Below are positions 3,647 to 20,736 of a DNA stretch of 64,000 nt, piece after piece. A program made the position numbers and the translations under genes. The DNA comes from a virus (taxonomy: Duplodnaviria > Heunggongvirae > Uroviricota > Caudoviricetes), in the IMG/VR virus record IMGVR_UViG_3300045993_000138; one strand, given 5' to 3'. Within the stretch, counting starts at the first letter, position 1. The number at the start of each line of letters is the position of its first letter. The notes under the pieces are model-generated. The model ran no database searches and had not been told where the DNA came from. It saw nothing but the letters and a program-made list of their open reading frames with translations.

Positions 3647-3913
3647 ATGGATAACCGTGAATACATTCCAGATGTAGTTGGATTTTGGAGACGTAATCCG
3701 AACTACACGGGCAACAAGTTTCCAGTAGTATTCAAGCCCTATCCAGTGCGTCTTCTTAGAGATGTCAAGGCTGATCGAAAACATCGAAAGGGCGAGAGTG
3801 CTTGGGTTCAGCGACTGCCTTCGAATCGTCTGTATTTGTTCGAAACTGAAATGAGCATTCTAGTGATTCTGATGGATGCCGTTGAAGGTGTGGATTTTGA
3901 GGTTTTGTCATGA
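3647..3913 (+). CDS. hypothetical protein
   Basis: ATG 3647 just after upstream stop. Confidence 0.55.
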   Translation: MDNREYIPDVVGFWRRNPNYTGNKFPVVFKPYPVRLLRDVKADRKHRKGESAWVQRLPSNRLYLFETEMSILVILMDAVEGVDFEVLS

Positions 3914-4095
3914 AAGAAGAATTCATCAATAATTACGTCGCAACGTTTTTGGCATCCTATTCGGCAGCTACGTATGACGAGAATTGCATGGGAGGTTGGG
4001 AACGTAGTCCTAAGCCTCCCGTAGAAGATGCCTACTATCTTGCCAAAGAGGCATGGGAAGCATTGAAGAAGCACAAAGAGGATCAGAAACTATGA
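3910..4095 (+). CDS. hypothetical protein
   Basis: ATGA coupling with neighbours. Confidence 0.6.
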   Translation: MKEEFINNYVATFLASYSAATYDENCMGGWERSPKPPVEDAYYLAKEAWEALKKHKEDQKL

Positions 4096-4472
4096 CTTAT
4101 AATGTATATGATTTGACGGAAGAAGATGAAGGGTATTCTGATAGCTACGAACGCCTGATGCTAGGACACAATGGAACGGCATCACTTTTGGTTGAAGTGC
4201 GAAAACGTTTCTCTGAAACAGATTTCATTTTCCATGTGATCAATGGAGCATGGGATGGTCGATATGTCGATGGCAGAATCTTTCTGGATATTGATGTCAG
4301 AGTTCGTGAAATGGATCCCGTCACCTACGTCCTACAGGAAAATGCCGAGTATATTGATGGATATGAAATCGTTTCTGACGACCAGAAACTCCTGAGAGTC
4401 GGTGATAGTTACTATCGTTCACAGGACTATAACGATATCTTCAATGATTATGAAAAGAGTCGAGTGAAGTAA
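4092..4472 (+). CDS. hypothetical protein
   Basis: ATG 4092 overlapping upstream stop. Confidence 0.65.
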   Translation: MTYNVYDLTEEDEGYSDSYERLMLGHNGTASLLVEVRKRFSETDFIFHVINGAWDGRYVDGRIFLDIDVRVREMDPVTYVLQENAEYIDGYEIVSDDQKLLRVGDSYYRSQDYNDIFNDYEKSRVK

Positions 4473-4488
4473 AATGGGAGGTTTAATT

Positions 4489-4716
4489 ATGAGTGGAATT
4501 ACATATCTGACAACTTCGCATTGGCGCACTGCCCTGAATATCGGACATATGCGAGCATTTGATGATGAACTTTCGGCAGTCGAATACGCAATCCAACTGG
4601 TGGAAGATGGAGAATTCGAAGGGCGAATTTATGCTCTTTCAGAAAGCAACAAGCCCAAGTTGATTGGACAGTATCGCGAGAATGATAGAACTGGTCAAAT
4701 AGAGAGGATCAAGTAA
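4489..4716 (+). CDS. hypothetical protein
   Basis: GGAGG RBS then ATG 4489. Confidence 0.6.
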   Translation: MSGITYLTTSHWRTALNIGHMRAFDDELSAVEYAIQLVEDGEFEGRIYALSESNKPKLIGQYRENDRTGQIERIK

Positions 4717-5067
4717 ATGAGTTGGGAAGAATATCAAAAACTTTCTCTTTCAAAGAAAGTCAGAACAATCACCGTTCTTGAAATTGAGTATGCTCCGGGT
4801 TATAAGAAGACTTATCGAAAGCTAGGAGTAGCGGTAAATAACATTGTTACTCATATGGTCAATAAGCAAGCAAACAAGATGCGAGATCTGGATGCCGCTA
4901 TTCCTATTTCACCAGAATATCAAAATAGAATGGATCGTTTTGGTGCGTATATGGTTCCTGCTCCGACTCCAAATCTGACTAAGTTCTACAAGGAACGCAA
5001 GAAGTCATATGAAAAGCGTGCGAAGCGTAGAATCACCAGAGTTGTCAAGAAGATGATGGGAGTATGA
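4717..5067 (+). CDS. hypothetical basic protein
   Basis: 116 aa, K/R-rich C-terminus. Confidence 0.6.
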   Translation: MSWEEYQKLSLSKKVRTITVLEIEYAPGYKKTYRKLGVAVNNIVTHMVNKQANKMRDLDAAIPISPEYQNRMDRFGAYMVPAPTPNLTKFYKERKKSYEKRAKRRITRVVKKMMGV

Positions 5068-5068
5068 C

Positions 5069-5368
5069 ATGAAGATTGACGAATGGTGTAATAGTGGAAT
5101 TCCAAAGGGCGAAATGGTCATCATTGCATCTGGAACTAATGTGGGGAGAAGTATGGTGAGTTATTATGGAAATGCGTCGATGCGTCTGTTCGATTGGGTA
5201 GCAGCCAATCCTCCTGCCTATGACAAGTTCATGCGCGATTGGTCTGTGACTGATTCTGGTCAGTTCACTCTGCTACAGTATCTCGGACACTATTCTTATC
5301 GTCAGGATATTCTGGAACGTCTGCGTGATGCTCTAGGTGCTCCTGCCGATCTATTTGAGGGTTGCTAA
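5069..5368 (+). CDS. hypothetical protein
   Basis: 99 aa ORF in packed run. Confidence 0.55.
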   Translation: MKIDEWCNSGIPKGEMVIIASGTNVGRSMVSYYGNASMRLFDWVAANPPAYDKFMRDWSVTDSGQFTLLQYLGHYSYRQDILERLRDALGAPADLFEGC

Positions 5369-5369
5369 A

Positions 5370-5699
5370 ATGAGTAATTGGATTCTTGGTCTTTTTTTAC
5401 TTTTGGTCATTGTTCCATCTAGTTTATCATTAGGAGCATTCATTGGTCTTGCGGCTGCTAAATTTGTATGGAGATCGTATCGCACCAGTCTATGGAGAGT
5501 CATGACGTTCAGGTGGAAGCCAGAAGTTGGTGAGAAGTGGGCTTGTGTGGTTGATGATCCTTGGAGTGACATGGGACATCATGCGGTCATTGTAGAATTA
5601 AAGGATGGTTGGGTTCTTTATGATAAGCCCGATTGCCGATGGGAAAAAAGAGATTCACTGGAACTCGATACATTCATCAGTCTATACAAGAGAGCCTAA
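5370..5699 (+). CDS. hypothetical membrane-anchored protein
   Basis: ATG 5370, N-terminal TM helix. Confidence 0.6.
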   Translation: MSNWILGLFLLLVIVPSSLSLGAFIGLAAAKFVWRSYRTSLWRVMTFRWKPEVGEKWACVVDDPWSDMGHHAVIVELKDGWVLYDKPDCRWEKRDSLELDTFISLYKRA

Positions 5700-5741
5700 G
5701 AGTCGCCATTTCGCGACATATAAGTAAAGGAGTGTCCCTCT

Positions 5742-5948
5742 ATGGAAAATACTCACATGGTTAACAAAGATCTTTTTGAAGTCTACATTCCTGCCGCTGA
5801 TCGTGTCATGGGTGCCTATCGCAATTTTACAGAAGCACTCAATCTTACGAAAACAATGTTCTGTGAAGTTCATATTCGTAAGAATTTGGAACTGGAATGT
5901 ATCGTCCATGCCAGAAACAATCCGGCACTTGATATTAAGAAAGAATGA
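5742..5948 (+). CDS. hypothetical protein
   Basis: aaggag RBS, 68 aa. Confidence 0.55.
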   Translation: MENTHMVNKDLFEVYIPAADRVMGAYRNFTEALNLTKTMFCEVHIRKNLELECIVHARNNPALDIKKE

Positions 5949-6111
5949 TGGTATAATGTAGTCTATTGTTATGGAGTTTTGAATATGCGAATCGATGGAA
6001 CTAGTTTTATACTAGGTTGTGCATTCACAGCATTCTGGTGCGGCAATCCTGTCATGGCATGTGCATTTTTGGCTGGTCTGTGGATTTCTAGGTTCTGGTG
6101 AGGAATATCAA

Positions 6112-6318
6112 ATGTTTCGTAATTTAAATTTACATGTTCGAACGAGTATCATCCTTCTAGGATTTGCTGCTGGAGTAACACTCACAGTTTTCATATTGAG
6201 ATTCCATCCTATGATTTTTGTTTATTTTATCATGGCTTGTCTCGCAATCATCTTATACAATACAATTTACACTACATTAAAGATTCACGATGGTGATGAT
6301 TTTGACGATTACCCGTAA
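6112..6318 (+). CDS. small membrane protein
   Basis: gagga RBS then ATG 6112, two TM helices. Confidence 0.55.
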   Translation: MFRNLNLHVRTSIILLGFAAGVTLTVFILRFHPMIFVYFIMACLAIILYNTIYTTLKIHDGDDFDDYP

Positions 6319-6571
6319 GAAACTTGCTATCGTTTCACCTTGCATGATTGTGAACGAAAGACGATATACGAATGCTAATCATGCGGCATGGGAAATTGCA
6401 GAGTTGATAAAGATTCGACTGCGACGCAGATGGGAAAATAAGATTGGAAGAAATCCAAATGATATTTCGTGGATAGTCCTCAGACTCCACCTTGCCGAAG
6501 ATCGTGCATTTCGCAGAGTTCTTCCCATTTGTGAAAAAGTATTAGGAGAGAATTTAAATGAGTTTCTATGA
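6290..6571 (+). CDS. hypothetical protein
   Basis: 93 aa ORF; true start uncertain. Confidence 0.5.
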   Translation: MVMILTITRKKLAIVSPCMIVNERRYTNANHAAWEIAELIKIRLRRRWENKIGRNPNDISWIVLRLHLAEDRAFRRVLPICEKVLGENLNEFL

Positions 6572-6710
6572 AAAGATATGTCTCGGACTAGTATTCGGCA
6601 GTTCACTGATAGTCATAACTTGTTGCGTCCTTGATCTGATCTATAATATCTGGAAAGGCGATTAATTTACACGCATAAGTATAAGAGATACTTATTTCTG
6701 GAGATCATGG

Positions 6711-6956
6711 ATGATGGATTCTAACAACGAGGTTCAGATGGAACATACATCATACTTTGACAGAATTAAGCATTTCTTTCTAAGTACAATCCACTTGATT
6801 CATGAGGATAAGAAACGTTCATATCAGGGTGGTCACTATAAGACTCGCATTATGCACGATCCGCGCACAGATGTTACTGTCGAGGAAATTGAGTTATTCT
6901 GTAACACTCTAAAATTTGATTCTATCGTAGATAGTACTAAAAAGAATAAGGAATAG
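6711..6956 (+). CDS. hypothetical protein
   Basis: ggag RBS, 81 aa. Confidence 0.55.
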   Translation: MMDSNNEVQMEHTSYFDRIKHFFLSTIHLIHEDKKRSYQGGHYKTRIMHDPRTDVTVEEIELFCNTLKFDSIVDSTKKNKE

Positions 6957-6958
6957 CA

Positions 6959-7153
6959 ATGAAGTTATACTCTGTGAACTACGGTGCTGAAATCATTCTA
7001 AATGCCAACAACCACTGGAAATCAATGAGAGTTACTACTCCACTAATATTCGAAGAACACCAGTATCAATCAGAAGATGATCATAAGATCACATTCAAAT
7101 ACAACAATCAGACCATTCACATTGACCATCAGGATGTAAAATTATTCGCATGA
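6959..7153 (+). CDS. hypothetical protein
   Basis: 64 aa, aagga RBS. Confidence 0.55.
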   Translation: MKLYSVNYGAEIILNANNHWKSMRVTTPLIFEEHQYQSEDDHKITFKYNNQTIHIDHQDVKLFA

Positions 7154-7255
7154 AATGTCCAGTTACACACACCAAATGTTGGATGTCCTGTAAAAACAAG
7201 TGCAAGAAGACACCACCCCCTTCTAAGTGATTGATTTATATAGATTATTGGCAGT

Positions 7256-7285
7256 TTGACTTAGATCATGAAAAAATGCTATAAT
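7256..7285 (+). promoter_or_regulatory. sigma70-type promoter
   Basis: TTGACT-18-TATAAT with TG extension; TAAGTGATTGAT motif at 7224. Confidence 0.65.
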
Positions 7286-7291
7286 AATCAT

Positions 7292-7684
7292 ATGATTAAA
7301 TCTGACTACATTTTCGGTCTGTTGGAAAAGGTCGCTCTGTCCAGCGACCACGAACGTTATTTTCTGGCTGCGGCAATCACGCTGCGAAATAGCATCATTT
7401 CATTTGGTGTCAATCGAATGAAGACTGATCCGATGCAAGCCAAGTATGCGAAGAATAAGGACTGCATCTACATGCACGCTGAAATTCACGCTATCAAGAA
7501 TGCTCTCAAGAAGGTTGAAGTAGATGATCTGCGTAAGGCAGATCTTTACGTTTTGCGCGTCCGTAATGAAGATGGTAAGCGTGCAATGGCAAAGCCTTGT
7601 GATGGCTGTATGCGAGCGATTGCCGAGTTCGGTATTCGCAATGTCTATTTTACAAATGAGCGTGGAAACGCGGAGGTTATTTAA
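7292..7684 (+). CDS. zinc-dependent cytidine/deoxycytidylate deaminase family protein
   Basis: HAE(IHAIKN) and KPCDGC motifs; ATG 7292 after promoter. Confidence 0.8.
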   Translation: MIKSDYIFGLLEKVALSSDHERYFLAAAITLRNSIISFGVNRMKTDPMQAKYAKNKDCIYMHAEIHAIKNALKKVEVDDLRKADLYVLRVRNEDGKRAMAKPCDGCMRAIAEFGIRNVYFTNERGNAEVI

Positions 7685-7930
7685 ATGAATGAAAAGAAGT
7701 GTCCTAAGACCGCACGAAAGTGTGAGCGTCATTGTTCTAGTACGTGTCGTCGCAGTGACGATGAACTATTCTCAAAGTCTTCTGTAGTAGAAGACAATTC
7801 ATTTTTCAACAACAGCACATGGACTTCATCTGATGATGGGTTCACTGACACTTCCAGCGACGACAAGAGTGATTCGTTTTCTGGTGGTGGTGGCGACTTC
7901 TCTGGTGGCGGTTCAGATTCAAGTTGGTAA
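7685..7930 (+). CDS. hypothetical Ser/Gly-rich protein
   Basis: Cys-rich N-terminus, C-terminal GGGGDFSGGGSDSSW tail. Confidence 0.6.
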   Translation: MNEKKCPKTARKCERHCSSTCRRSDDELFSKSSVVEDNSFFNNSTWTSSDDGFTDTSSDDKSDSFSGGGGDFSGGGSDSSW

Positions 7931-7968
7931 AAGCCCAATAAATACTCTTAGGTCACAGGAGTATTTCA

Positions 7969-8328
7969 ATGTATAAGAAATTAATAGTTGTTGGGTTTAT
8001 GCTAGTCAGTTTATTGGCTAGCTGCGGTAAGTCGCCAAGCAGTGTAGGCGGGGATGGTTATTACTTCGAAAAGGAAACACTTACCAGAACAGATCTTGCT
8101 TTGCATGTTGTTCTTGTAAAAGATCAGGCTGAAATGACTCAGCTTCTAAAGGAACACGGAAGACAGCCAGTTGCCGGAAATGAAGTAGCCGCATTCTCCA
8201 CATATTCACCAGTTGAGCCACGATGCACGATTTATATGATAGATCCTAAGTTGAGTTATCAGCCAGAATTTATCGGACACGAACTTGTCCATTGTGTATA
8301 CGGAAACTGGCATACAGTCCAACCATAA
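7969..8328 (+). CDS. putative lipoprotein with HExxH motif
   Basis: lipobox LLASC; GHELVHC motif. Confidence 0.65.
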   Translation: MYKKLIVVGFMLVSLLASCGKSPSSVGGDGYYFEKETLTRTDLALHVVLVKDQAEMTQLLKEHGRQPVAGNEVAAFSTYSPVEPRCTIYMIDPKLSYQPEFIGHELVHCVYGNWHTVQP

Positions 8329-8336
8329 GGAATATC

Positions 8337-8918
8337 ATGGAACATTTTTATAATGCACCCCATATGGGTGAAGATTATTTTACATATGCCGCTCTGTACG
8401 AAGCTGCCGTAGAGAATTTTCCTTCTGGAAGTCATTTTGTCGAAATAGGTGCATACAAAGGAAGATCGTCCTCATATCTGGCAGTTGAAATCGTCAATTC
8501 AGGAAAGAATATCAAACTAGACTGTATTGATTCTTGGGATAACGAAGATTTCAAAAGATACTGGAATTCTCAGGAAGAAGGTCTTGGTGATGGTGTCTAT
8601 AAAAACTTCGTAAGAAACATCAGTCCAGTAAGAGATAGAATCAACGTCATCAAAGGTAACTCTTGGGAAACTGCGAATTTATATAAGGACAATTCTCTTG
8701 ACTTCGTTTTCATCGATGCGGATCATGAATATGACAGTGTGTATAAAGATATAAACGCATGGTTGCCGAAAGTGAAAAAGGGTGGATTACTGTCTGGTCA
8801 TGATTACTACTATGATGGTGCGTATTGGGTTGGTGTACGTGATGCATGTGATCAAATTTTCGGTAAAGGAAATTACTCAGACCCTTGGGGCTGTAAGTGT
8901 TGGGTTAAATACCTGTAA
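8337..8918 (+). CDS. class I SAM-dependent methyltransferase (Methyltransf_24-like)
   Basis: VEIGAYKGRSS, DFVFIDADHEY, GGLLSGHDY motifs. Confidence 0.85.
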   Translation: MEHFYNAPHMGEDYFTYAALYEAAVENFPSGSHFVEIGAYKGRSSSYLAVEIVNSGKNIKLDCIDSWDNEDFKRYWNSQEEGLGDGVYKNFVRNISPVRDRINVIKGNSWETANLYKDNSLDFVFIDADHEYDSVYKDINAWLPKVKKGGLLSGHDYYYDGAYWVGVRDACDQIFGKGNYSDPWGCKCWVKYL

Positions 8919-8929
8919 GTGTAATCATT

Positions 8930-9787
8930 ATGAATAAAGTGAATGTGCTAGTCGGCAACTGCGCGGAAGTCCTAAAAACGCTTCCGCGTAATTATTTCAA
9001 CTGCTGTGTGACTTCCCCTCCATACTTCTCACTCAGAGATTATGAAATGGAAGATCAGGTTGGAATGGAAAGTACTCCAAAAGAGTACGTAGATAAACTA
9101 GTGGAGATTTTTCGTGAGGTCCGCGAGACTCTAAGAGACAATGGAACACTCTGGCTGAATCTAGGTGATACCTATGCAGCACAACGATCTGGTACACATA
9201 TGCCAGCACAAACACTTTCAAATGGAAACCATCGTGGTACTGGTGGAACAAAGCGTAGACCGGCACACCGTAATGCTTCTGCAATCGGATTAAAGCATAA
9301 GGATCTGATTGGAATACCTTGGAAGGTGGCATTCGCACTACAGGAGGATGGTTGGTATCTACGTCAAGATATCATCTGGTCGAAGCCAAATCCAATGCCA
9401 GAATCCATAAAGGATCGTTGCACTAAGTCACATGAGTATATTTTTCTTCTTTCGAAGTCTGAAAAGTACTATTTCGATTATGAGGCTATTCGTGAACCTA
9501 CAGTAAGTGGTGGTGATCTTAAGAATAAGCGTTCCGTGTGGACTGTTCCAACTCGCTCTTCCGGTGTAGAACACTATGCGACTTATCCAGAGGAATTAGT
9601 AATATCATGTATTGCTGCTGGTTCTCCAACGGGTGGTTTTGTCCTTGATCCATTTGCTGGTTCTGGAACTACAGGCATAGTTGCACAAAATTTGTGTTGT
9701 GATGCAACTCTTATTGAACTGAATCCAGAATTTGCTGAAATTGCTCGAAAGCGAGTTAGTAACGGCTTGACAAGTCTAATGGTTTAG
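8930..9787 (+). CDS. DNA N6-adenine/N4-cytosine methyltransferase (beta class)
   Basis: TSPPY catalytic motif N-terminal, DPFAGSGTT SAM motif C-terminal. Confidence 0.92.
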   Translation: MNKVNVLVGNCAEVLKTLPRNYFNCCVTSPPYFSLRDYEMEDQVGMESTPKEYVDKLVEIFREVRETLRDNGTLWLNLGDTYAAQRSGTHMPAQTLSNGNHRGTGGTKRRPAHRNASAIGLKHKDLIGIPWKVAFALQEDGWYLRQDIIWSKPNPMPESIKDRCTKSHEYIFLLSKSEKYYFDYEAIREPTVSGGDLKNKRSVWTVPTRSSGVEHYATYPEELVISCIAAGSPTGGFVLDPFAGSGTTGIVAQNLCCDATLIELNPEFAEIARKRVSNGLTSLMV

Positions 9788-9795
9788 GTTATAAT
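9767..9795 (+). promoter_or_regulatory. sigma70-type promoter for the RLP operon
   Basis: TTGACA-17-TATAAT. Confidence 0.75.
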
Positions 9796-9840
9796 AACTG
9801 AGATAGATATTCTCATGTTATTGATTGGAGTTATTTCTAA

Positions 9841-10560
9841 ATGAATGTAATTATTCCTATGGCTGGATTAGGTTCGCGATTCTTCACGGACCATTACAAA
9901 TTACCAAAGCCTCTGATTGATATTGGCGGCAAACCAATGATTCAAAGGGCAATAGAAACCCTAGATGTCGATGGTCATTATCATTTTCTATTAAGAGACA
10001 GTGAATACTTAAAAGACATAGAGTATGCTATTAAGGGAACAGTTCCATTTGCAAATATCAAAGTTATCGATTACATAACAGAAGGTCCAGCATGTTCTGC
10101 ATTACTCTTTGCGGATGAAATCGCTAATGATGAAGAATTGATCATTGCCAATTGTGACCAAATTATGTCATGGGATTCCAGTTTGTTTCTTTATAACGTG
10201 CGCCTCTATGACGGTGCAGTAGTCACATATCATTCTGATACTGAAAAGAACAGTTATGCCAGATTGGACAAACATGGTTACGTAGCCGAGATTCGTGAGA
10301 AGGAAGTCATTAGCAATGTTTCATTGAATGGCATTCACTATTGGGCTAAGGGAAAGCATTTCGTTCACAGTGCCAATAGAATGATCGAAAATAATGATCG
10401 TGCATATAATGGCGAGTTCTATATCGGACCATCGTTTAATTACATGATTGATGAAGGTAAGAATGTTGGAATCTTTCATATTCCAAATGAGCAGCATCAT
10501 CCAGTTGGCGTTCCAGCAGATCTAGAACGTTACATCAAGGAATACCATGCAGACCTATAA
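9841..10560 (+). CDS. sugar-phosphate nucleotidyltransferase (NTP_transferase/GT-A fold)
   Basis: IIPMAGLGSRF...PKPLIDIGGKPMI signature, NCDQ, GEFY motifs. Confidence 0.85.
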   Translation: MNVIIPMAGLGSRFFTDHYKLPKPLIDIGGKPMIQRAIETLDVDGHYHFLLRDSEYLKDIEYAIKGTVPFANIKVIDYITEGPACSALLFADEIANDEELIIANCDQIMSWDSSLFLYNVRLYDGAVVTYHSDTEKNSYARLDKHGYVAEIREKEVISNVSLNGIHYWAKGKHFVHSANRMIENNDRAYNGEFYIGPSFNYMIDEGKNVGIFHIPNEQHHPVGVPADLERYIKEYHADL

Positions 10561-10870
10561 AGGAAGCGACTTTGTTCGCGGCTGGTTCATAGGCGACTTT
10601 GAACCCTCCATATATAAAACAGCAGACTTTGAAGTTGGGTACCTGAGACACGCGAAAGGTGAATATTGGGCACCACACTTCCATAAAGAAAGCGTGGAAA
10701 TGAATTACCTCATTAGAGGCAAGATGGTTATTCAGAATGTCGAGTTGAATGCTGGTGATGTTTTCGTGTTTGAAAAAGGCGAAATTGCAAATCCAGAATT
10801 CCTTGAAGATTGTGAATTGATTGTGGTCAAGGTACCATCCTTGCCAAAAGACAAATACAATGTGGAGTAA
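10547..10870 (+). CDS. cupin-fold protein (putative sugar epimerase/isomerase)
   Basis: HFH..SVE cupin motif 1, GDVFVF motif 2; overlaps upstream stop. Confidence 0.75.
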   Translation: MQTYKGSDFVRGWFIGDFEPSIYKTADFEVGYLRHAKGEYWAPHFHKESVEMNYLIRGKMVIQNVELNAGDVFVFEKGEIANPEFLEDCELIVVKVPSLPKDKYNVE

Positions 10871-10873
10871 ACT

Positions 10874-12070
10874 ATGAATTTATTTAGAAACCTGAGTGAT
10901 ATAGACAAGAGCAAATACTTCATAGCAGAATACAAAGTCAAGAGTACAACTACTCTGAGAGACGCTGCATGGAATATTGCTATTGGTCAGAGCGTAGGAA
11001 ATCCTAACGTCAGAAACGAATGGGAATCTGATGAACTCTTTGAAAACTATAGCTGCAAGATCATTGGTGATGAAGCCAAGCTTAGTACAGTCAAGAATGG
11101 TAAGGTAAAGATTGCCTTTCCAGTGATCAATACTGATTGGCAGACTGATGGCATTAGTCATCTACTTTGCCAGCTAATGGGTGGACATGTAGACATCGAA
11201 ATTATTAAGTCCTGTAGACTTGTAGGATTGAAGCTTCCAAAGAGTGTTACCAAGAATTTCCTCGGACCAAAGTACGGTATCTCAGGATTCCGTAAGTATA
11301 CTGGTCAGTATGACAAACCACTATTCGGAAGTATCGTAAAACCAAAGATTGGTCTTACACCAGATAAACTTTTGGATATGGTAAAGCAGATGGTAGACGG
11401 TGGTGTGGATTTTATTAAAGAAGACGAGATTATGAGTAATCCTGTTTTCTGCCCACTAGAAAAGCGCGTTGGTATGATTTCAAACTATCTCGCAAATCAA
11501 AGTCGCAAGGTTGTATTCTGTCACACAATTAATGCGGATCCACATGTAATAGTAGATCGTGTCAAGTCTGTATATAATGCTGGTGGCACAGGAGTACACA
11601 TCAACGTCTGGTCTGGTCTTGGAGTCTATAACAGCATTCGCAAGCTAGATCTTCCAATGTTCCTACACTTTCAGAAGAGTGGTGATAGAGTCTTTACGGA
11701 TAAGAAGAATAAGTACAGTATTTCATGGTCAGTAGTCTGTATGCTCGCGGGGCTGATGGGCGTAGATACAATCCAGACTGGAATGATTGGTGGTGGCTAT
11801 AGTGATGATGATGAAGTAGAACTTAAGAAGGCAATGAAGATTCTATTGAAGCATAACGTAACACCAGTACTCAGTTGTGGATTTCACCCCGGATTAGTCG
11901 ATAAGGTTACGGGTCTAGTAGGAAAGAATTATATGGCAAATGTTGGTGGAGCAGTTCACGGACATCCAATGGGAACAATCGGTGGTGCCAGAGCAATGCG
12001 ACAGGCAATCGACGGCACGCACGGGATAGAATATCAACAAGCAATTCAAAAATGGGGTTTAGCACAATGA
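10874..12070 (+). CDS. RuBisCO-like protein (form IV RLP)
   Basis: KPKIGL, GGVDFIKEDE (carbamylation Lys/Mg motif), SCG and GGAVHGHPMG motifs; lacks residues equivalent to E60, N123, H294, K334. Confidence 0.9.
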   Translation: MNLFRNLSDIDKSKYFIAEYKVKSTTTLRDAAWNIAIGQSVGNPNVRNEWESDELFENYSCKIIGDEAKLSTVKNGKVKIAFPVINTDWQTDGISHLLCQLMGGHVDIEIIKSCRLVGLKLPKSVTKNFLGPKYGISGFRKYTGQYDKPLFGSIVKPKIGLTPDKLLDMVKQMVDGGVDFIKEDEIMSNPVFCPLEKRVGMISNYLANQSRKVVFCHTINADPHVIVDRVKSVYNAGGTGVHINVWSGLGVYNSIRKLDLPMFLHFQKSGDRVFTDKKNKYSISWSVVCMLAGLMGVDTIQTGMIGGGYSDDDEVELKKAMKILLKHNVTPVLSCGFHPGLVDKVTGLVGKNYMANVGGAVHGHPMGTIGGARAMRQAIDGTHGIEYQQAIQKWGLAQ

Positions 12071-12663
12071 AGAAGTGGCAACAGGATTTAGTGGAAGACA
12101 TTCGTAGCTTCACGACACATGACGATCAAGATCATCCAGATCAGGGTCTTTATTGCACATGGGATGAAGTGACTTACTGCAACTACTATGGTGTAGATAA
12201 TAAGTTTCATGAAATGAAGGATCGCGCAAAGGCAATTCTTGAAATCGGTATTTCACGTAATGGTGATCGTTCCATTACACAGGCATTCTTAAAGGGTAAG
12301 CTAGACTCTACAATCTATGTCGGTATTGACATCGATGATAAGACCTATCTGGACAACAAGGAAAAGAACGTTTTCACAATTAAAAATTCTTCCTCGGATT
12401 ACGAGAAGAATGTGGGGCTTATCAAGTCTTTTGGTGTCGAGAAGTTTGACTTTATTTTCATTGACGGTTGGCATTCGATAAATCAGGTTCTGGATGATTG
12501 GGAATACACAAACTTACTTGCAGATGGTGGAGTTGTGGGCTTGCATGATATCAATCATCATCCGGGTCCAAAGGATTTCATTGCTGCCTTGGATAGTGAA
12601 AAGTGGGTAATAGACAAGCGTTGCCCTGACGATTGGGGTGTTGGATTTGTGTGGAAGAAATAA
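12067..12663 (+). CDS. class I SAM-dependent methyltransferase (Methyltransf_24-like)
   Basis: ILEIG, DFIFIDGWHS, GGVVGLHD; ATGA overlap with RLP stop. Confidence 0.75.
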   Translation: MKKWQQDLVEDIRSFTTHDDQDHPDQGLYCTWDEVTYCNYYGVDNKFHEMKDRAKAILEIGISRNGDRSITQAFLKGKLDSTIYVGIDIDDKTYLDNKEKNVFTIKNSSSDYEKNVGLIKSFGVEKFDFIFIDGWHSINQVLDDWEYTNLLADGGVVGLHDINHHPGPKDFIAALDSEKWVIDKRCPDDWGVGFVWKK

Positions 12664-12665
12664 AA

Positions 12666-13100
12666 ATGGTCATTTCGCATCGTGGAAATATGGGTGGAAG
12701 AAATAAGGAAACTGAAAATTCACCCGAGCAGATTGATAAAGCATTAGCTGCTGGCTACGATGTTGAAATTGATGTGTGGTATATTGACGATGGATTGTTT
12801 CTTGGGCATGATGGTCCAGACTATCTAGTAGATTTTGAATTCTTCAATAAGAGAAAGCAGAATCTCTGGATTCATTGTAAGAACGTTGCCGCACTTCTTT
12901 ACTTCTATCAATTCCCATTTGTCTTCAATTACTTCTGGCATGAGGCTGATACAGTCACATTTACGTCTCTAAGATATATGTGGGTGTTTCCGGGGAATCA
13001 GCCGATTCGCAATAGCATTGCGGTCATGCCAGAATTGTATGATGATGATGTAAGCCAAGCATTAGGTGTCTGCACTGACTTTCCAGAAAATTACGAATGA
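12666..13100 (+). CDS. glycerophosphodiester phosphodiesterase/PLC-like protein
   Basis: ISHRG, ENS, DVEIDVW, LGHD motifs. Confidence 0.8.
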   Translation: MVISHRGNMGGRNKETENSPEQIDKALAAGYDVEIDVWYIDDGLFLGHDGPDYLVDFEFFNKRKQNLWIHCKNVAALLYFYQFPFVFNYFWHEADTVTFTSLRYMWVFPGNQPIRNSIAVMPELYDDDVSQALGVCTDFPENYE

Positions 13101-13828
13101 GAACAGCATTAATATTGAGTGGGCAGATTCGCAGCGCAAGAGATTGCTACGCGAACACAAAAAAGTATTTAATAGATCAGTATAATGCTGATGTATTCAT
13201 TTCCACATGGACTCCAACATCGAATGTCGTTGCTGCATTGGGTAATGCATTTACCAATGACATTTCTATGGATGAAATGTTTGATATGTACAGACCAAAG
13301 GCATGTATCATAGAAGAATTCGACACACTGCCAATGCTTAGAAAGCTGCGACTGAATATCGATGTTTACAATAACAAAACTGCGTATGATGGAACTTGGG
13401 TAGAAGAGACGAACATAGAGAATGTGTTCTTACAGAATTTCAGAAGGGCACAAGGGTTTGAACTTTTACACAATTACTCCAATGATAATGATGTGTGCTA
13501 TGAGCGTGTTATTCTGAGCAGGTTTGATTTAGACATTCATACATTTCCAATCATAGAACCAGAGAATAATGAAATTTGGATTCCAACAGGTCCAAATGTG
13601 GATAGTCCAGAATACCACTATGGCGGCATTCGCGACTTGATGGCAATAGGAGGACAGAATGAAATGTCATACTATTGTGACCTATACAATCATCTGAACT
13701 TTTATGTTCGCCAATGTGAATTTGGACTTCATCCAGAATCGATCATCAGAAGGCATTTAGAAAGATATGGATTCAAGATCAAGCGTTTTCCAATGGAATC
13801 CAGCCTACGCGGAAATCCGGTTCTTTAA
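13097..13828 (+). CDS. putative glycosyltransferase-like protein
   Basis: ALILSGQIRS, DVFISTW, SRFDL, HPE pattern resembling glycan-locus proteins (recognised from memory). Confidence 0.55.
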   Translation: MRTALILSGQIRSARDCYANTKKYLIDQYNADVFISTWTPTSNVVAALGNAFTNDISMDEMFDMYRPKACIIEEFDTLPMLRKLRLNIDVYNNKTAYDGTWVEETNIENVFLQNFRRAQGFELLHNYSNDNDVCYERVILSRFDLDIHTFPIIEPENNEIWIPTGPNVDSPEYHYGGIRDLMAIGGQNEMSYYCDLYNHLNFYVRQCEFGLHPESIIRRHLERYGFKIKRFPMESSLRGNPVL

Positions 13829-14922: not shown

Positions 14923-14951
14923 TTGACTTTTACAAAAGTTTGCTATATAAT
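14923..14951 (+). promoter_or_regulatory. sigma70-type promoter for the RNA island
   Basis: TTGACT-17-TATAAT upstream of the hammerhead and tRNA array. Confidence 0.75.
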
Positions 14952-15503: not shown

Positions 15504-15578
15504 GCGTCCATAGTATAAAGGCTATTATGAGTGCCTTCCAAGCACATGATGCGAGTTCGATTCTCGCTGGACGCTCCA
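15504..15578 (+). tRNA. tRNA-Gly(TCC)
   Basis: cloverleaf, loop CTTCCAA, TTCG T-loop, CCA. Confidence 0.9.
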
Positions 15579-15585
15579 AGTTTAT

Positions 15586-15661
15586 TGGTAGGTGACTAGA
15601 GTGGTAATAGCCGCGACTGTTAATCGCGTATTCACAGGTTCGATCCCTGTCCTACCAGCCA
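15586..15661 (+). tRNA. tRNA-Asn(GTT)
   Basis: loop CTGTTAA, CCA. Confidence 0.9.
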
Positions 15662-15667
15662 ATTTAA

Positions 15668-16040
15668 CGTGATGGAAATGTGGGTTAAAATCCCGCAAGG
15701 GCAACTATACTGCTTGATGGTCTAAAGACTAAGACTCCATCCATTTATTCGACTACGCTGAGTAATCGCGAGTCAAACGATATCCCACTGATTACACTAA
15801 ATTGTGGGGCGTGTATGATGGAGGAAGGGCATTCCATCAATAAAAAAGCAACCCGTCCGTGCGATAGCAATGACCCACGGCGCAGAAGATACATAAGGTA
15901 GTGATACGAGGGAAATCCCCTATCACAATGAGAAATGTATCGATTGACTCGCTGCGAAATGAACGAGAGTCTAACCATGATCGTAGTTGCCTACGGAAGA
16001 GGGACTGATCCAGTCAGTTCAAAACGGCATCAACTGGAAG
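15668..16040 (+). ncRNA. unassigned large structured RNA
   Basis: long-range helices 15700-07/15984-91, 15768-76/15944-52, 15714-20/15834-40, 15735-41/15817-23, 15888-94/15935-41; no plausible + strand ORF. Confidence 0.6.
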
Positions 16041-16045
16041 TTTTC

Positions 16046-16120
16046 GGGGAATTAGTATAATGGCTATTACTGTGCGTTTGCAACGCATTGACGAGGGTTC
16101 GACTCCCTCATTCTCCACCA
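16046..16120 (+). tRNA. tRNA-Ala(TGC)
   Basis: loop TTTGCAA, G3:U70, CCA. Confidence 0.9.
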
Positions 16121-16126
16121 ATTTTC

Positions 16127-16212
16127 GGGTGAACGGTAACGACGGCGAGTTACACCAGACTGTAAATCTGATGCCTCCGGCTCAGTAGGTTCGAATCCTA
16201 CTTCACCCACCA
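16127..16212 (+). tRNA. tRNA-Tyr(GTA)
   Basis: loop CTGTAAA, long V arm, CCA. Confidence 0.88.
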
Positions 16213-16314
16213 ATATGAAAAACAGGGCTTGCCCTGCTGTGTAAGGAAGTGTCTCTTGTAGAATTACTCCAAGTCAGCCGTTTGAGAGGGCACCGATACC
16301 CTTCTCGCCTTTTC

Positions 16315-16389
16315 GGGGAATGTGCTAGGAACACGGATTTGCCTTGCAAGCAGATTGCCAGATCGGAGCGTAACCGATATTCTCCACCA
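16315..16389 (+). tRNA. atypical tRNA-Ala(TGC)
   Basis: GGGGAAT/ATTCTCC-ACCA, loop CTTGCAA, T-loop AGCGTAA. Confidence 0.7.
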
Positions 16390-16397
16390 ATTTACTT

Positions 16398-16474
16398 GGG
16401 TCCGTAGCTCAAATGGACAGAGCAGCAGACTTTTAATCTGAAGGCTGTGGGATCGTACCCCACTGGACCCACCA
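16398..16474 (+). tRNA. tRNA-Lys(TTT)
   Basis: loop CTTTTAA, T-loop ATCGTAC, CCA. Confidence 0.85.
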
Positions 16475-16662
16475 AGTTTTGTTGAGAGTAGATGTCGAGA
16501 AATCTGTCGCCTAATTAGCGGCAAGAAAGATGAGGTTTCCCAGTGGGATCGGCTGCATCAAGTATTGACTATTACTGCGTACCACTAACCCTGCGCGCTT
16601 TATTACAAGGGAAAAATGGTTTCGAATATAGGTGGCGAAACGTCTCAACAAATTTATTTTAT

Positions 16663-16741
16663 CTGAGTGTGGGCTAATTGGCAAAGCTACCTGATTTGGA
16701 GTCAGGACATCATGTAGGTTCAAGTCCTACCATTCAGACCA
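16663..16741 (+). tRNA. tRNA-Pro(TGG)
   Basis: loop TTTGGAG, CCA. Confidence 0.9.
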
Positions 16742-16746
16742 ATTTT

Positions 16747-16849
16747 GCGTCGGCAAGTGAGAGGGCAATTTAGGTGTGCTCAAACCAAGTAACATGGATC
16801 CAATGTGAAAGGTATCTTTCTGTAGGTTCAAATCCTACCTGATGCTCCA
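16747..16849 (+). tRNA. tRNA-like RNA, anticodon undetermined
   Basis: acceptor GCGTCGG/CTGATGC-TCCA and canonical T arm, irregular middle. Confidence 0.5.
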
Positions 16850-16857
16850 AGTTTTAT

Positions 16858-16952
16858 CCCCGATAGCACAGGCGTGCGGGTGGGTTTTATAAACCCGCGA
16901 GAGTTGCCAGATTAGCGACAACGGGAAGGATCGTTACCTTCATCGGGGACCA
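16858..16952 (+). tRNA. tRNA with UAU anticodon and long variable arm
   Basis: CCCCGAT/ATCGGGG-ACCA, loop TTTATAA, ~26 nt V region, T-loop ATCGTTA. Confidence 0.7.
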
Positions 16953-16958
16953 AATTAT

Positions 16959-16987
16959 TTGACATTTAAAGAAATGTCCTATATAAT
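16959..16987 (+). promoter_or_regulatory. sigma70-type internal promoter
   Basis: TTGACA-17-TATAAT just before tRNA-Pro(GGG). Confidence 0.7.
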
Positions 16988-16996
16988 AGATCATAT

Positions 16997-17072
16997 CAGG
17001 GTGTAGCTCAATTGGTAGAGCGCAACGTTTGGGGCGTTGATGTTAAGAGTTCGAGTCCCTTCATCCTGACCA
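16997..17072 (+). tRNA. tRNA-Pro(GGG)
   Basis: loop TTGGGGC, CCA. Confidence 0.88.
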
Positions 17073-17089
17073 ATTTAAAGTGAGAAATT

Positions 17090-17761
17090 ATGTTTGTATA
17101 TAAAAGTGGTATGAACAATACTGAAAGAACATTCACAGACATTTTTAATCACGGTACTTGGGGACCAGTGAAGAGTGGAGACGGATCCACGATCAGATAC
17201 ACTGAAAACCTAAGGAAAGAACTTCCGCTTGTATTTGGAAAGTTCGGTGTGCAGACATTTCTAGATGCGCCTTGTGGCGACATGACATGGATGCCACTAG
17301 TATTGAAAGAATCAAACATCAATTATATTGGTGGAGATATTGTCGGAAACATGATTGAACAGCATACCGCACAGTATGCAAATGAAAGAACTAAGTTCCA
17401 ACATTTGGATATTTGTCGCGACGCTCTTCCATCAGCAGATCTTTGGATGTGTCGAGATTGTTTGTTTCATCTGTGTGAAGAAGAAATCTTCATGGCACTG
17501 AACAACTTTGTGAAGTCAGATATCAAATATATTCTAACTTCGACACACTTCAGTGATTCGATAAACAATATCACTGGCGGTAGTTACAATGGGAATTTTG
17601 ATATTGTAACTGGTGGATTCAGGCTTCTCAATTTGTTTGATAAGCCATACAATTTTCCAGAACCGCTTTATAGAATTGCTGATGCTCTTGTAGGGTTTCC
17701 GAGACGCGAAATGTGCGTCTGGTCTAGAGAGCAGATTGCAAATGTTTTAATGGGTGGATAG
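17090..17761 (+). CDS. class I SAM-dependent methyltransferase
   Basis: FLDAPCGD motif I, GGDIV, RDCLFHL. Confidence 0.8.
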   Translation: MFVYKSGMNNTERTFTDIFNHGTWGPVKSGDGSTIRYTENLRKELPLVFGKFGVQTFLDAPCGDMTWMPLVLKESNINYIGGDIVGNMIEQHTAQYANERTKFQHLDICRDALPSADLWMCRDCLFHLCEEEIFMALNNFVKSDIKYILTSTHFSDSINNITGGSYNGNFDIVTGGFRLLNLFDKPYNFPEPLYRIADALVGFPRREMCVWSREQIANVLMGG

Positions 17762-17826
17762 TATAATGGTAGTACAGCAGCCTCCAAATCTGCACGGTCA
17801 GGGTTCGAATCCTTGTCTGCCCGCCA
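17752..17826 (+). tRNA. tRNA-Trp(CCA)
   Basis: loop CTCCAAA, CCA; overlaps last codons of upstream CDS. Confidence 0.85.
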
Positions 17827-17957
17827 AATGATAGTATCGCTGTCTGGTCTGTATTAAATTACGGGATGGCACCGAAGGGTGTAAATCGACTACAGTGATA
17901 GTGGATCAAGCTTCCACCGTTTTGTGGTGTTTCGAAAAACCACACATAGTTTTCAAT

Positions 17958-18035
17958 GCGTTTGTCGTATAACTGGCAAATTATACCTGACTCTTACTCA
18001 GGCTGATCAGGGTTCGAATCCCTGCGAACGCACCA
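17958..18035 (+). tRNA. tRNA-Lys(CTT)
   Basis: loop CTCTTAC, CCA. Confidence 0.82.
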
Positions 18036-18042
18036 ATTTTAT

Positions 18043-18119
18043 GCGCCTATAGTGAAATGGAATTATCACAAGAGTCTACGAAACTCTTATTACAGGTTCG
18101 AATCCTGTTAGGCGTGCCA
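18043..18119 (+). tRNA. tRNA-Arg(ACG)
   Basis: loop CTACGAA, CCA. Confidence 0.88.
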
Positions 18120-18150
18120 AACATCGTCGGTTTCAACATCGACGTATCGA

Positions 18151-18281
18151 TTAGTAGGAAGACGTTGGTTCGAATCCAACTGGCATAGTGATCAAACCTC
18201 TGTGGACGCACAGTGTAAGCGGAAGCGCGAGTTGATCGACAAAACTATGCTGTAGCTTAGTGGAAGAGCGTCCTGCGCTAA
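18151..18281 (+). ncRNA. circularly permuted tRNA mimic (YrlA Y-RNA-like architecture)
   Basis: T arm 18164-80, acceptor-like helix 18181-89/18244-52 closed by a branched insert, D arm 18253-69, terminal helix GTAGGA/TCCTGC. Confidence 0.7.
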
Positions 18282-18285
18282 ATTT

Positions 18286-18360
18286 GCTCTCAAAGCATTG
18301 ACGGCGATGCGCGGGTTTTGTAAGCCTGATAACTCAGTTCGACTCCGAGTGAGAGCACCA
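18286..18360 (+). tRNA. tRNA-Thr(TGT)
   Basis: loop TTTGTAA, CCA. Confidence 0.88.
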
Positions 18361-18363
18361 AAT

Positions 18364-18462
18364 TTGAGTCAGAAGTGTAGTGGTTGCACGGGAAGTCCGA
18401 GACGCATAATCTGCGGAGTAGGCATCCAAATGCCAAGAGTGGTTCGATTCCACATGACTCAA
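18364..18462 (+). ncRNA. tRNA-like RNA with branched anticodon domain, no CCA
   Basis: TTGAGTCA/TGACTCAA stem, D-like arm, GTGG-TTCGATT-CCAC T arm. Confidence 0.5.
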
Positions 18463-18472
18463 TGTTTTATAT

Positions 18473-18547
18473 GGTCCCATCGTCTAGCGGTAAGGATAAG
18501 AGACTTTCAATCTTTTGACAGGGGTTCGATTCCCCTTGGGACTACCA
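18473..18547 (+). tRNA. tRNA-Glu(TTC)
   Basis: loop CTTTCAA, CCA. Confidence 0.9.
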
Positions 18548-18552
18548 ATTTC

Positions 18553-18630
18553 GGATACGTAGCATAAATGGCTTGTGCGTCACTCTCATAAAGTGAAATG
18601 GTATTGGTTCAATTCCAATCGTATCCTCCA
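18553..18630 (+). tRNA. tRNA(CAT), Met or Ile2
   Basis: loop CTCATAA, CCA. Confidence 0.82.
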
Positions 18631-18637
18631 GTTTTAT

Positions 18638-18711
18638 GCGCCCTTCGTATAGAAGCATTACCTTGGTTTTACATACCAAAGAAGGCGGAGCATTACCGTC
18701 AGGGCGTACCA
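18638..18711 (+). tRNA. tRNA-Val(TAC)
   Basis: loop TTTACAT, T-loop AGCATTA, CCA. Confidence 0.75.
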
Positions 18712-18788
18712 AATTGCCATTGAAAAGATGGATAGAGAAAGTCGGTCGAATCTAGACTTGACAGGGGGAGAGTCTCCACCAATTTTAT

Positions 18789-18861
18789 AGCGGGTAAGTA
18801 GACGATTGCTACGCTGCGTTCATACCGCAGAGAGGATGTGAGACTCATCATCCCGCTACCA
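18789..18861 (+). tRNA. atypical tRNA-Met(CAT)
   Basis: CTGCG-TTCATAC-CGCAG arm, T-loop TGAGACT, CCA. Confidence 0.6.
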
Positions 18862-18868
18862 ATTTTAA

Positions 18869-18943
18869 CGCCTGATAAGTTAACGATATAGACTAGTCAC
18901 CTGATCAGTGAACAGTGTGGTATGAAATCCACAAAGGCGACCA
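18869..18943 (+). tRNA. degenerate tRNA-Ile(GAT)-like
   Basis: CGCCT/AGGCG-ACCA, loop CTGATCA, irregular D and T arms. Confidence 0.45.
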
Positions 18944-19136
18944 TTTTTGTAGTCTTGCGCGAGGCAAGGTAAAAGGCACTGCGGGTAGAAATACCGATAA
19001 ACATCGAAGCGCAGTTTAAATAGATTGTGTTCAGCCTACTACAATTTTACAACACTGAGCGGAGAGATCACCGCACGGAGGACGGCGCAAACACTCACCT
19101 TAAAAATGAGAACAATTAGCCATCCCAACTTTTTAT

Positions 19137-19210
19137 AGGACCGTAGCTCAAAAGTAGAGCAATGTACTGATAATGCATAGACGAAGGAGCGTTACCTTCT
19201 GGTCCTACCA
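19137..19210 (+). tRNA. tRNA-Ile(GAT)
   Basis: loop CTGATAA, T-loop AGCGTTA, CCA. Confidence 0.8.
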
Positions 19211-19216
19211 ATTTTT

Positions 19217-19291
19217 GCTTGTATCGTATAACGGCTAATACGATCTCCCGATTAGAGATTTATCAGGGTTCGAATCCTTGTACAAGCACCA
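19217..19291 (+). tRNA. tRNA with non-canonical anticodon loop (CCGATTA)
   Basis: good acceptor, D and T arms and CCA; C33 and U37 instead of U33 and purine 37. Confidence 0.65.
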
Positions 19292-19621
19292 AGTTTTGAT
19301 GTGGCTCGCGTAAGTCTTAGCGGACATGACGCTTTGTTGTGATGCTCTGAATGTATACTAGTACTTTCATTCAGGCTAAACTTCGTAAATTCGGGGAACA
19401 GAGGCTTCAACGAGTTCTTTGTTCAATAGCAAACCACATCAAATTTAACGTTCCGTTGTTAGCGGATAGTGTGCCCACACGATGAGAAGTAGAGTGACAT
19501 CTACGGGACGGTTCTAGTCAAGCCTTACTAGCGTTAGCAGCACGATAGTCTTTCTGTGTCGTGAAGTGGGGTGACGGTTCAAGCCGAATTACCACCGATA
19601 GAAAGAATGCACCTAATTTAT

Positions 19622-19698
19622 GGCTGGTTAGAATAGTGGCTTAATTCACTACCCTGTCACGGTAGATATCACGGGTTCGAATCCCGTACCAGTCGCCA
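19622..19698 (+). tRNA. tRNA-Asp(GTC)
   Basis: loop CTGTCAC, CCA. Confidence 0.9.
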
Positions 19699-19767
19699 AC
19701 AACAGACAAAGTATTAAACAAAAACGTACTTTGTCTACCTAAATACCTTTTGTTTAAGAAGGTATTC

Positions 19768-20256
19768 ATGAGAAGAATCAACACACTCATAGTAGCAGTT
19801 ATCGCATTAGTGTTATTTACGATTGGTTGGTTTCTTCCTCTGCATAGTTACATCACTCCAAGAGAGGGTGTAGGTTACGCACTAGGATGGATCGGTGCAA
19901 TTGGAATGATGCTGGCATCTTCTTATGCACTGAGAAAAAGGTTTCATAGATTGTTTGATTGGATTGGAAACCATAGAATGGTTTTCGATGTCCACATAAT
20001 CTTCGGAATCTTTGGACCGATAATGATTATGTATCACTGTGGTTACAGGCTTGGAGCAACGAATAGCAATGTCGCATTGTATTCAATGATCGCCGTGGTC
20101 GCAAGTGGTGTAATTGGAAGGTATCTATATATTAGAGTGGATAGAAGTGCGCTAATTAAGAAACTGTTTTCTTGGTGGCACGCAGTTCACCTTCCGTTTC
20201 TAGGTATGTTAATTGTAACGACAATCTTTCATGTCCTAGCATCGTTTTTATACTGA
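19768..20256 (+). CDS. membrane protein with ferric-reductase-like His motifs
   Basis: several TM helices; H-IIFGIFGP-IMIMYH and WWHAVHLPF...FHV. Confidence 0.7.
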   Translation: MRRINTLIVAVIALVLFTIGWFLPLHSYITPREGVGYALGWIGAIGMMLASSYALRKRFHRLFDWIGNHRMVFDVHIIFGIFGPIMIMYHCGYRLGATNSNVALYSMIAVVASGVIGRYLYIRVDRSALIKKLFSWWHAVHLPFLGMLIVTTIFHVLASFLY

Positions 20257-20259
20257 TTC

Positions 20260-20334
20260 GCCCTTATAGTACAATGGCAAGTACGCATCATTGGTAATGA
20301 TGAAATCAAAGTTCAATTCTTTGTTGGGGCACCA
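20260..20334 (+). tRNA. tRNA-Thr(GGT)
   Basis: loop TTGGTAA, CCA. Confidence 0.85.
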
Positions 20335-20352
20335 AAATTTGAGGATAAGATT

Positions 20353-20730: not shown

Positions 20731-20736
20731 TTTTAT

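Follow-up and report, generated by a model that had tools for sequence, protein, structure and literature searches.

A conserved gene cassette around a phage RuBisCO-like protein as a candidate pathway for a nucleotide-activated sugar

Known RuBisCO-like systems and the phage operon

RuBisCO-like proteins (RLPs) of phages have been reported before. Jaffe, Castelle, Dupont and Banfield (2019, Mol Biol Evol, PMC6389311) described "Form IV-like" RLPs from approximately 80 putative phage sequences and from Beckwithbacteria, and gave their function as "unclear". The present work concerns an RLP and the five genes around it at positions 9841 to 13828 of a 64,000-nucleotide (nt) stretch of DNA, hereafter called the window, from the IMG/VR virus record IMGVR_UViG_3300045993_000138. 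The window is a part of an uncultured T4-like myophage genome with gp32-, gp59-, gp25-, gp53- and gp6-like proteins and a late-transcription coactivator. We consider it rather probable that the six genes encode a pathway in which a sugar monophosphate is remodelled by enolate chemistry and then activated with a nucleotide, for the decoration of a glycan or glycoconjugate. The most economical reading of the locus is, in our view, a pathway not yet described that would yield a nucleotide-activated sugar or polyol.

As far as the accessible part of the paper by Jaffe et al. goes, their RLPs are like the one in the window in belonging to the same clade, in residing in myovirus-type genomes and in having key residues diverged in the same way; the function, however, was left open there and the gene neighbourhood was not treated (PMC6389311). 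The sequence-only reading of the window had called the pathway undescribed, which does not hold for the phage RLPs themselves, whereas the cassette and its link to sugar activation were not found in the literature: searches on phage and viral RLPs, and on RLPs with nucleotidyltransferases or glycans, gave no paper tying the cassette to sugar activation. Compared with that same part of the earlier paper, the new elements are the partnership of the RLP with a nucleotidyltransferase (NT), a cupin, a small protein resembling glycerophosphodiester phosphodiesterases (GDPDs; the protein is called mini-GDPD below) and a DUF7796 protein, the fusion of RLP and NT in one chain, and the carriers in SAR11 and DPANN. 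Also new are the enrichment of DUF7796-type genes and their homology to the fifth gene of a SAR11 island, the fold likeness of the cupin to ManC/XanB, and the invariant residues of the mini-GDPD.

A non-carboxylating RLP and a small cupin encoded side by side are also known from the methylthioadenosine (MTA)-isoprenoid shunt of R. rubrum and R. palustris, in which a DeepYkr RLP and a cupin methylsulfurylase catalyse successive steps, that of the RLP being a 1,3-carbonyl shift on a ketose 1-phosphate (PMC5893883). The shunt differs from the phage locus in being a sulfur salvage route, fed by MtnP plus MtnA and ending in deoxyxylulose 5-phosphate (DXP), with no NT, GDPD or transferase (PMC5893883). 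The phage RLP, moreover, was placed in a clade apart from the MtnW-like group. The teaming of a sugar-phosphate NT with a metal cupin isomerase has its counterpart in ManC/XanB, the bifunctional mannose-1-phosphate guanylyltransferase/mannose-6-phosphate isomerase (NT plus cupin) of guanosine diphosphate (GDP)-mannose synthesis. The model of the phage cupin can be laid on the C-terminal cupin domain of these enzymes with a template modelling (TM) score of approximately 0.65, but the likeness is confined to the fold (14-19% identity), other small cupins do just as well, and GDP-mannose synthesis uses neither an RLP nor a GDPD. The GDPDs of the GlpQ/UgpQ family, e.g., PDB 1V8E, share the catalytic and metal motifs HRG, EN, ExD and HD with the mini-GDPD and are its best fold matches, but have around 220-250 residues against 144, and most of the barrel helices are missing in the phage protein.

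The operon comprises the following features.

9767-9795, + strand: sigma-70-type promoter TTGACA-17-TATAAT, 12/12 match, within the last codons of a DNA methylase gene
9841-10560, + strand: NT, 239 aa (P0001)
10547-10870, + strand: cupin, 107 aa (P0002), 14-nt overlap with the NT gene
10874-12070, + strand: RLP, 398 aa (P0003), 3-nt gap after the cupin gene
12067-12663, + strand: methyltransferase (P0004), overlapping the RLP stop; the open reading frame (ORF) opens at 12052
12666-13100, + strand: mini-GDPD, 144 aa (P0005), 2-nt gap after the methyltransferase gene
13097-13828, + strand: DUF7796 protein, 243 aa (P0006), ATGA overlap with the mini-GDPD gene

The six + strand ORFs at 9841-13828 thus overlap or lie 2-3 nt apart, and both the ORF coordinates and the promoter scan agree with the sequence-only reading, which had seen six tightly packed genes behind a perfect promoter. 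This was the sole 12/12 match in the region of 7-16 kb; promoter-like sites as a class showed no enrichment in it (30 found, 25.7 expected). The two hexamers recur unaltered in two relatives (RLP identity 94%), while the spacer and the flanking bases vary, and the complete gene block is kept in these two as well as in at least 24 contigs of close relatives. The six genes are presumably co-transcribed, and the promoter type suggests early transcription by the host RNA polymerase. A hairpin at 12622-12640 was considered as a terminator and rejected, since it has merely 3 G-C pairs and lies inside coding sequence.

Active site and phylogeny of the RLP

The RLP belongs to the RuBisCO large-subunit superfamily (PF00016, 134.4 bits against a cut-off of 30.1), and RuBisCO chains in PDB matched it down to an E value of 3e-43; in PHROGs no family matching it was found. 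Its residues were assigned from an alignment to T. kodakarensis RuBisCO, by which all earlier residue claims proved correct. Retained are K156-P-K158 (K175/K177 of RuBisCO), K182-E-D184-E185 (K201/D203/E204), with the K175-K201 spacing of 26 intact, and the P1 phosphate site formed by S334, G336 and G358-G359. Replaced are E60 (by G38), T65 (N43), N123 (G104), H294 (Q267), R295 (K268), H327 (Q301) and K334 (Y309). Judged from the aligned residues, the Mg/carbamate site and one phosphate site are retained and the residues for CO2 addition and the second phosphate site are lost. By analogy with the established enzymology of RuBisCO and RLPs, the protein is predicted to bind Mg2+ via a carbamate and to enolise a 2-keto-3-hydroxy monophosphate, with no addition of CO2 and no binding of a second phosphate.

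Several described functions of the superfamily were tried and rejected. A carboxylase, i.e., a bona fide RuBisCO of forms I-III, is at odds with the substitution of E60, N123, H294, H327 and K334; the form III equivalog was the best-scoring curated model, at 193.8 bits with a cut-off of 497. The 2,3-diketo-5-methylthiopentyl-1-phosphate (DK-MTP-1-P) enolase of methionine salvage was rejected on scores (MtnW/YkrW models, 155.7 bits with a cut-off of 409 and 121 with a cut-off of 514), on residues and on the tree. The catalytic Lys of this enolase presumably sits at the N123 position, as in the Geobacillus enzyme, where the phage RLP has Gly. The 3-oxo-isoapionate-4-phosphate decarboxylase OiaX was rejected by its equivalog score (155.8 bits, cut-off 700) and by the separate clade of the OiaX-like representative.

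The tree was built from 146 sequences and has an arbitrary root. Its outgroups are unnamed representatives of 50%-identity clusters, labelled by their best NCBIfam model at scores below the cut-off, and there is no labelled DeepYkr reference among its rows. The window RLP fell into a clade of 63 rows with a support of 100 (SH-like approximate likelihood ratio test, SH-aLRT), apart from the form III-like, MtnW-like and OiaX-like representatives. Besides the window RLP, this clade takes in eight close metagenomic relatives, 18 cluster representatives and 35 cellular homologues, and it contains a Beckwithbacteria protein with 50% identity (L092). Since phage and Beckwithbacteria sequences are monophyletic here, the window RLP can be placed in the "Form IV-like" clade of Jaffe et al. 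The earlier view of a protein that is neither a carboxylase nor a methionine-salvage enolase was upheld; no grouping with the methionine-salvage enolases was seen in the tree.

Two kinds of fusion proteins were encountered among the representative proteins. P0181 (583 aa, from outside the window) has an N-terminal TIR domain fused to a full RLP; it is 31% identical to the window RLP, stands outside the clade, and may represent an RLP acting on a molecule derived from nicotinamide adenine dinucleotide (NAD) or ADP-ribose in a defence setting. P0162 and P0169 (726-742 aa) have an IF-2B-family domain, i.e., one of the ribose-1,5-bisphosphate isomerase family, fused to a RuBisCO whose N and C domains both match strongly, and by their domain content would bring together in a single chain two steps of the AMP/pentose-bisphosphate pathway that follow each other.

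Partner genes in phage and cellular loci

Loci were collected from IMG/VR (82 of 228 matches) and from bacteria and archaea (37), and their ORFs were called and then clustered. Of 116 loci, 113 had an NT gene no more than 6 kb from the RLP, and in 97 of these 113 it was on the same strand and at most 450 nt away, so that the association seen in the window extends well beyond its own phage. One protein, P0130, is a natural fusion of RLP and NT. Partners were counted within 4 kb of the RLP in loci with at least 4 kb on both sides (53 phage, 20 cellular), as follows.

NT: 52 of 53 phage loci, 19 of 20 cellular loci
mini-GDPD: 44 of 53 phage loci, 10 of 20 cellular loci
cupin: 43 of 53 phage loci, 6 of 20 cellular loci
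DUF7796-type: 35 of 53 phage loci, 5 of 20 cellular loci
methyltransferase: 26 of 53 phage loci, 0 of 20 cellular loci

Within 4 kb of the RLP, the density of DUF7796-type ORFs was 24 times that in the rest of the same loci (65 vs. 2). A cupin-less order, in which GDPD-NT-RLP has a DUF7796-like gene and an FkbM methyltransferase behind it, recurred in many phage loci, and GT11, GT17 and FkbM methyltransferases are among the phage-locus neighbours. One phage locus, L024, has five DUF7796 paralogues around the RLP cassette (3854-10606), which suggests, from the sequences, a diversification of the putative transferase step.

The cellular carriers are diverse. They include Pelagibacter (SAR11, among the most abundant organisms of the ocean), with one locus on a complete chromosome (L087) and several on contigs of more than 160 kb, and further bacteria from Patescibacteria/Beckwithbacteria/Saccharibacteria (candidate phyla radiation, CPR), Planctomycetes, Verrucomicrobia, Elusimicrobia and Bacteroidota; the archaeal carriers are DPANN (Woese-, Pace-, Micr- and Nanoarchaeota). 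No Legionella locus turned up among the matches. Several SAR11 genomes have a compact island, GDPD-NT-RLP-NT-c44, set among housekeeping genes, with thyX on one side and a ParA/Mrp-type gene on the other, and the protein encoded by c44 is a DUF7796 homologue (hhalign 98%, E 8e-14). The neighbours in CPR and DPANN comprise GT2 (in several copies), GT4, WavE, SDR epimerase/dehydratases, DegT aminotransferases, sugar C-methyltransferases, B12-radical SAM enzymes and small cytidylyltransferases. Because cellular and phage loci both hold such glycan-type neighbours, the cassette was read as glycan-related. Among 50,697 GenBank phage records no DNA match to the operon and the structural region was found, nor a tblastn match to the RLP at E 1e-5; the phage carriers found are for this reason all uncultured, which has no bearing on function. 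The metagenomes in which DNA of the operon stretch was detected, at the level of sequencing runs, came from pond, wetland and peat.

The NT aligns with PDB 4EVW at full length (residues 3-232, E 2e-9), carries the signature GLGSRF...KLPKPL of the G-x-G-x-R...K type, and matches phrog_3980 with an E value of 6e-54. Fifteen NCBIfam NT models of RmlA-, GlmU- and HddC-type match it, all far below their equivalog cut-offs, and Pfam NTP_transf_3 gave 26.0 with a cut-off of 27. By its sequence the protein is assigned as a sugar/polyol-phosphate nucleotidyltransferase with a fold of the RmlA/GlmU/LicC type. The cupin has an HxH...E motif with the metal triad H44, H46 and E51 conserved among homologues. 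Its structural model (predicted local distance difference test, pLDDT, 94) gave 209 PDB fold matches at E values up to 1e-3 and identifies it as a single-domain metal cupin of the cupin superfamily; archaeal phosphomannose isomerases, KdgF, putative sugar-phosphate isomerases and the cupin domain of ManC/XanB are among the fold neighbours.

The methyltransferase scored 27.5 bits against Methyltransf_24, narrowly above the cut-off of 26.3, and is of the S-adenosylmethionine-dependent type. A start at the ATG at 12067, which gives a product of 198 aa, agrees with the gene calls in close relatives, and PHROGs had no family matching the protein. Searches of PDB sequences with the methyltransferase and the DUF7796 protein gave nothing useful, and no solved DUF7796 relative was found among them. 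The DUF7796 protein matched the DUF7796 clusters with an Atlas score of 0.98 and, much more remotely, the WavE-type neighbours by hhalign (43%, E 2e-4). The Atlas model of a SAR11 DUF7796 homologue resembles glycosyltransferase, WavE and GT8 clusters with TM scores of 0.6-0.7, and on the basis of these models we regard the protein as a putative GT-A/WavE-like transferase.

The mini-GDPD begins at a conserved ATG at 12666, inside a longer ORF with TTG at 12633. Twelve positions, H5, R6, E17, N18, E34, D36, H48, H70, K72, H92, D95 and C136, are invariant among 61 homologues. The third metal ligand position is a His (H70-x-K72), where we take the canonical motif to be E-x-K. No match to the Pfam GDPD family (PF03009) was obtained. 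The model has a pLDDT of 96.9, and its top PDB fold matches are GDPDs of 217-254 aa, with TM scores by query of at most 0.57; the phage protein has around 60% of the length of the GDPDs matched. In AlphaFold DB a cellular GP-PDE counterpart of 152 aa was found, with a TM score of 0.92. Another entry, A0A6C0IUS3 (353 aa, annotated as ethanolamine-phosphate cytidylyltransferase), aligned weakly with the mini-GDPD model over its residues 1-212 (E 0.02). It may be a fusion of a GDPD with a cytidylyltransferase, and the weak match hints, without being evidence, that the mini-GDPD could free a phosphomonoester from a diester.

Proposed pathway, alternatives and genomic surroundings

In the proposed pathway a ketose monophosphate would bind to the RLP at the retained P1 phosphate site and be enolised at the carbamyl-Lys/Mg2+ centre (K182, D184 and E185, with K156), leading to a carbonyl shift or an epimerisation, not to carboxylation. 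The metal cupin could, before or after this step, interconvert aldose and ketose or serve as a tautomerase, in the manner of phosphomannose isomerases. The NT would then join the phosphate ester to a nucleoside triphosphate, giving a donor linked to a nucleoside or cytidine diphosphate, the methyltransferase would O-methylate the sugar, and the DUF7796 protein would hand the unit to an acceptor. The mini-GDPD, the least explained part of the scheme, may either free the phosphomonoester substrate from a diester or trim a phosphodiester-linked product. Our confidence in any single step is much lower than in the general scheme. Of the activated, possibly branched sugar in the sequence-only reading, the nucleotide-activated sugar or polyol fits the retained sites and the co-conservation, whereas "branched" is pure speculation. 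The target may be virion glycosylation or host-surface remodelling.

A number of points weigh against this scheme. The fold matches of the cupin are generic, the link from DUF7796 to glycosyltransferases consists of remote profile and predicted-structure similarity, and it is not obvious where the mini-GDPD would fit into a nucleotide-sugar pathway of the classical kind. The cassette encodes no mutase or kinase, so that host enzymes would have to bridge the steps. Among the cellular loci, the short contigs L083 and L084 may be misbinned phage DNA, and co-location with glycan genes could arise from a general clustering of accessory genes in variable islands.

A more far-reaching version of the scheme is one that we put forward tentatively, as quite possible. 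The RLP clade would here catalyse the committed step to a new nucleotide-activated ketose, rearranged sugar or polyol phosphate, which would be the first anabolic, glycan-building role in the superfamily; aquatic phages, SAR11, CPR and DPANN would have the pathway in common through horizontal exchange, and a minimal GDPD-type barrel of 144 aa would serve it as a dedicated enzyme. The near-obligate pairing of RLP and NT, their fusion, and the recurrent cupin, mini-GDPD and DUF7796 protein turn phage RLPs, which have had no proposed function since 2019, into a concrete problem of enzymology. If the proposal is true, a superfamily whose known roles are otherwise CO2 fixation, methionine salvage and sugar-acid catabolism gains a biosynthetic one, and SAR11 and its phages have a new building block of surface glycans, with a bearing on phage-host recognition.

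Among the alternatives, a salvage or catabolic route survives best, although we regard it as unlikely. The cassette would resemble the MTA-isoprenoid shunt, or break down pentose phosphates or nucleosides as in the AMP pathway of form III RuBisCO. The teaming of an RLP with a cupin that follows it is proven for R. rubrum and R. palustris (PMC5893883), the form III model scored best, and a phosphodiesterase would suit scavenging. Yet in the tree, which has no labelled DeepYkr, the RLP clade stands away from the MtnW-like and form III-like sequences, and none of MtnP, MtnA and AMP-phosphorylase turned up as a recurrent neighbour. Approximately one fifth of the phage loci and the majority of the cellular loci lack the cupin, whereas almost all loci have an NT, and a salvage route would leave the NT, the DUF7796 protein and the methyltransferase with no role.

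Less likely again is a sugar donor for DNA hypermodification, in the manner of the glucosylation or arabinosylation of hydroxymethyl-cytosine in T-even phages. The phage is T4-like, the sigma-70-type promoter fits an early expression as for the DNA-modification genes of T4 (the timing being deduced from the promoter), and the cassette adjoins the following genes.

7268-7684, + strand: deoxycytidine monophosphate (dCMP)-deaminase-like gene, upstream of the operon
8292-8918, + strand: second, strong Methyltransf_24/O-methyltransferase, upstream of the operon
8930-9787, + strand: N6/N4 DNA methylase, directly upstream of the operon

All three genes, however, adjoin the cassette in close relatives only, and the methyltransferase and DNA methylase at 8292-9787 are probably outside the cassette. 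In SAR11, CPR and DPANN the cassette is found amid GT2, GT4, WavE, SDR and DegT genes, and no thymidylate-synthase/hydroxymethylase or DNA glycosyltransferase family was present among the matches listed (25 of 28 families, ORFs of at least 90 aa in the 64-kb window). DNA is accordingly the least likely of the three targets that had been named, the others being the virion and the host surface.

That the cassette makes or destroys a nucleotide-derived signal, e.g., in counter-defence, with the NT and the phosphodiesterase working on the nucleotide part and the RLP on the ribose-phosphate part, is highly improbable: a nucleotidyltransferase and a phosphodiesterase do occur together in an early phage operon, a distant RLP is fused to TIR and the phage has NAD-salvage genes, but the NT fold is that of sugar-1-phosphate nucleotidyltransferases and not of CD-NTase or Pol-beta, the TIR fusion is outside the RLP clade, and in bacteria and archaea with tiny genomes the cassette is part of the chromosome, within glycan clusters.

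Downstream of the operon, a TTGACT-17-TATAAT site at 14923-14951 precedes an array of 29 tRNA genes (15504-25197, + strand), at the end of which lie two homing-endonuclease-like genes (HNH and NUMOD3, 25244-26364). The array region is followed by an NMNAT-like cytidylyltransferase-NUDIX fusion (26455-27540, + strand), which adjoins NAMPT (27586-28962, + strand). Such a pair constitutes the two-enzyme NAD+ salvage of large vibriophages and was recently tied to the countering of NAD-depleting defences. Genes for PhoH (31456-32193, + strand) and for a protein of the IMP dehydrogenase/GMP reductase family (36487-37554, + strand) were also found in the window.

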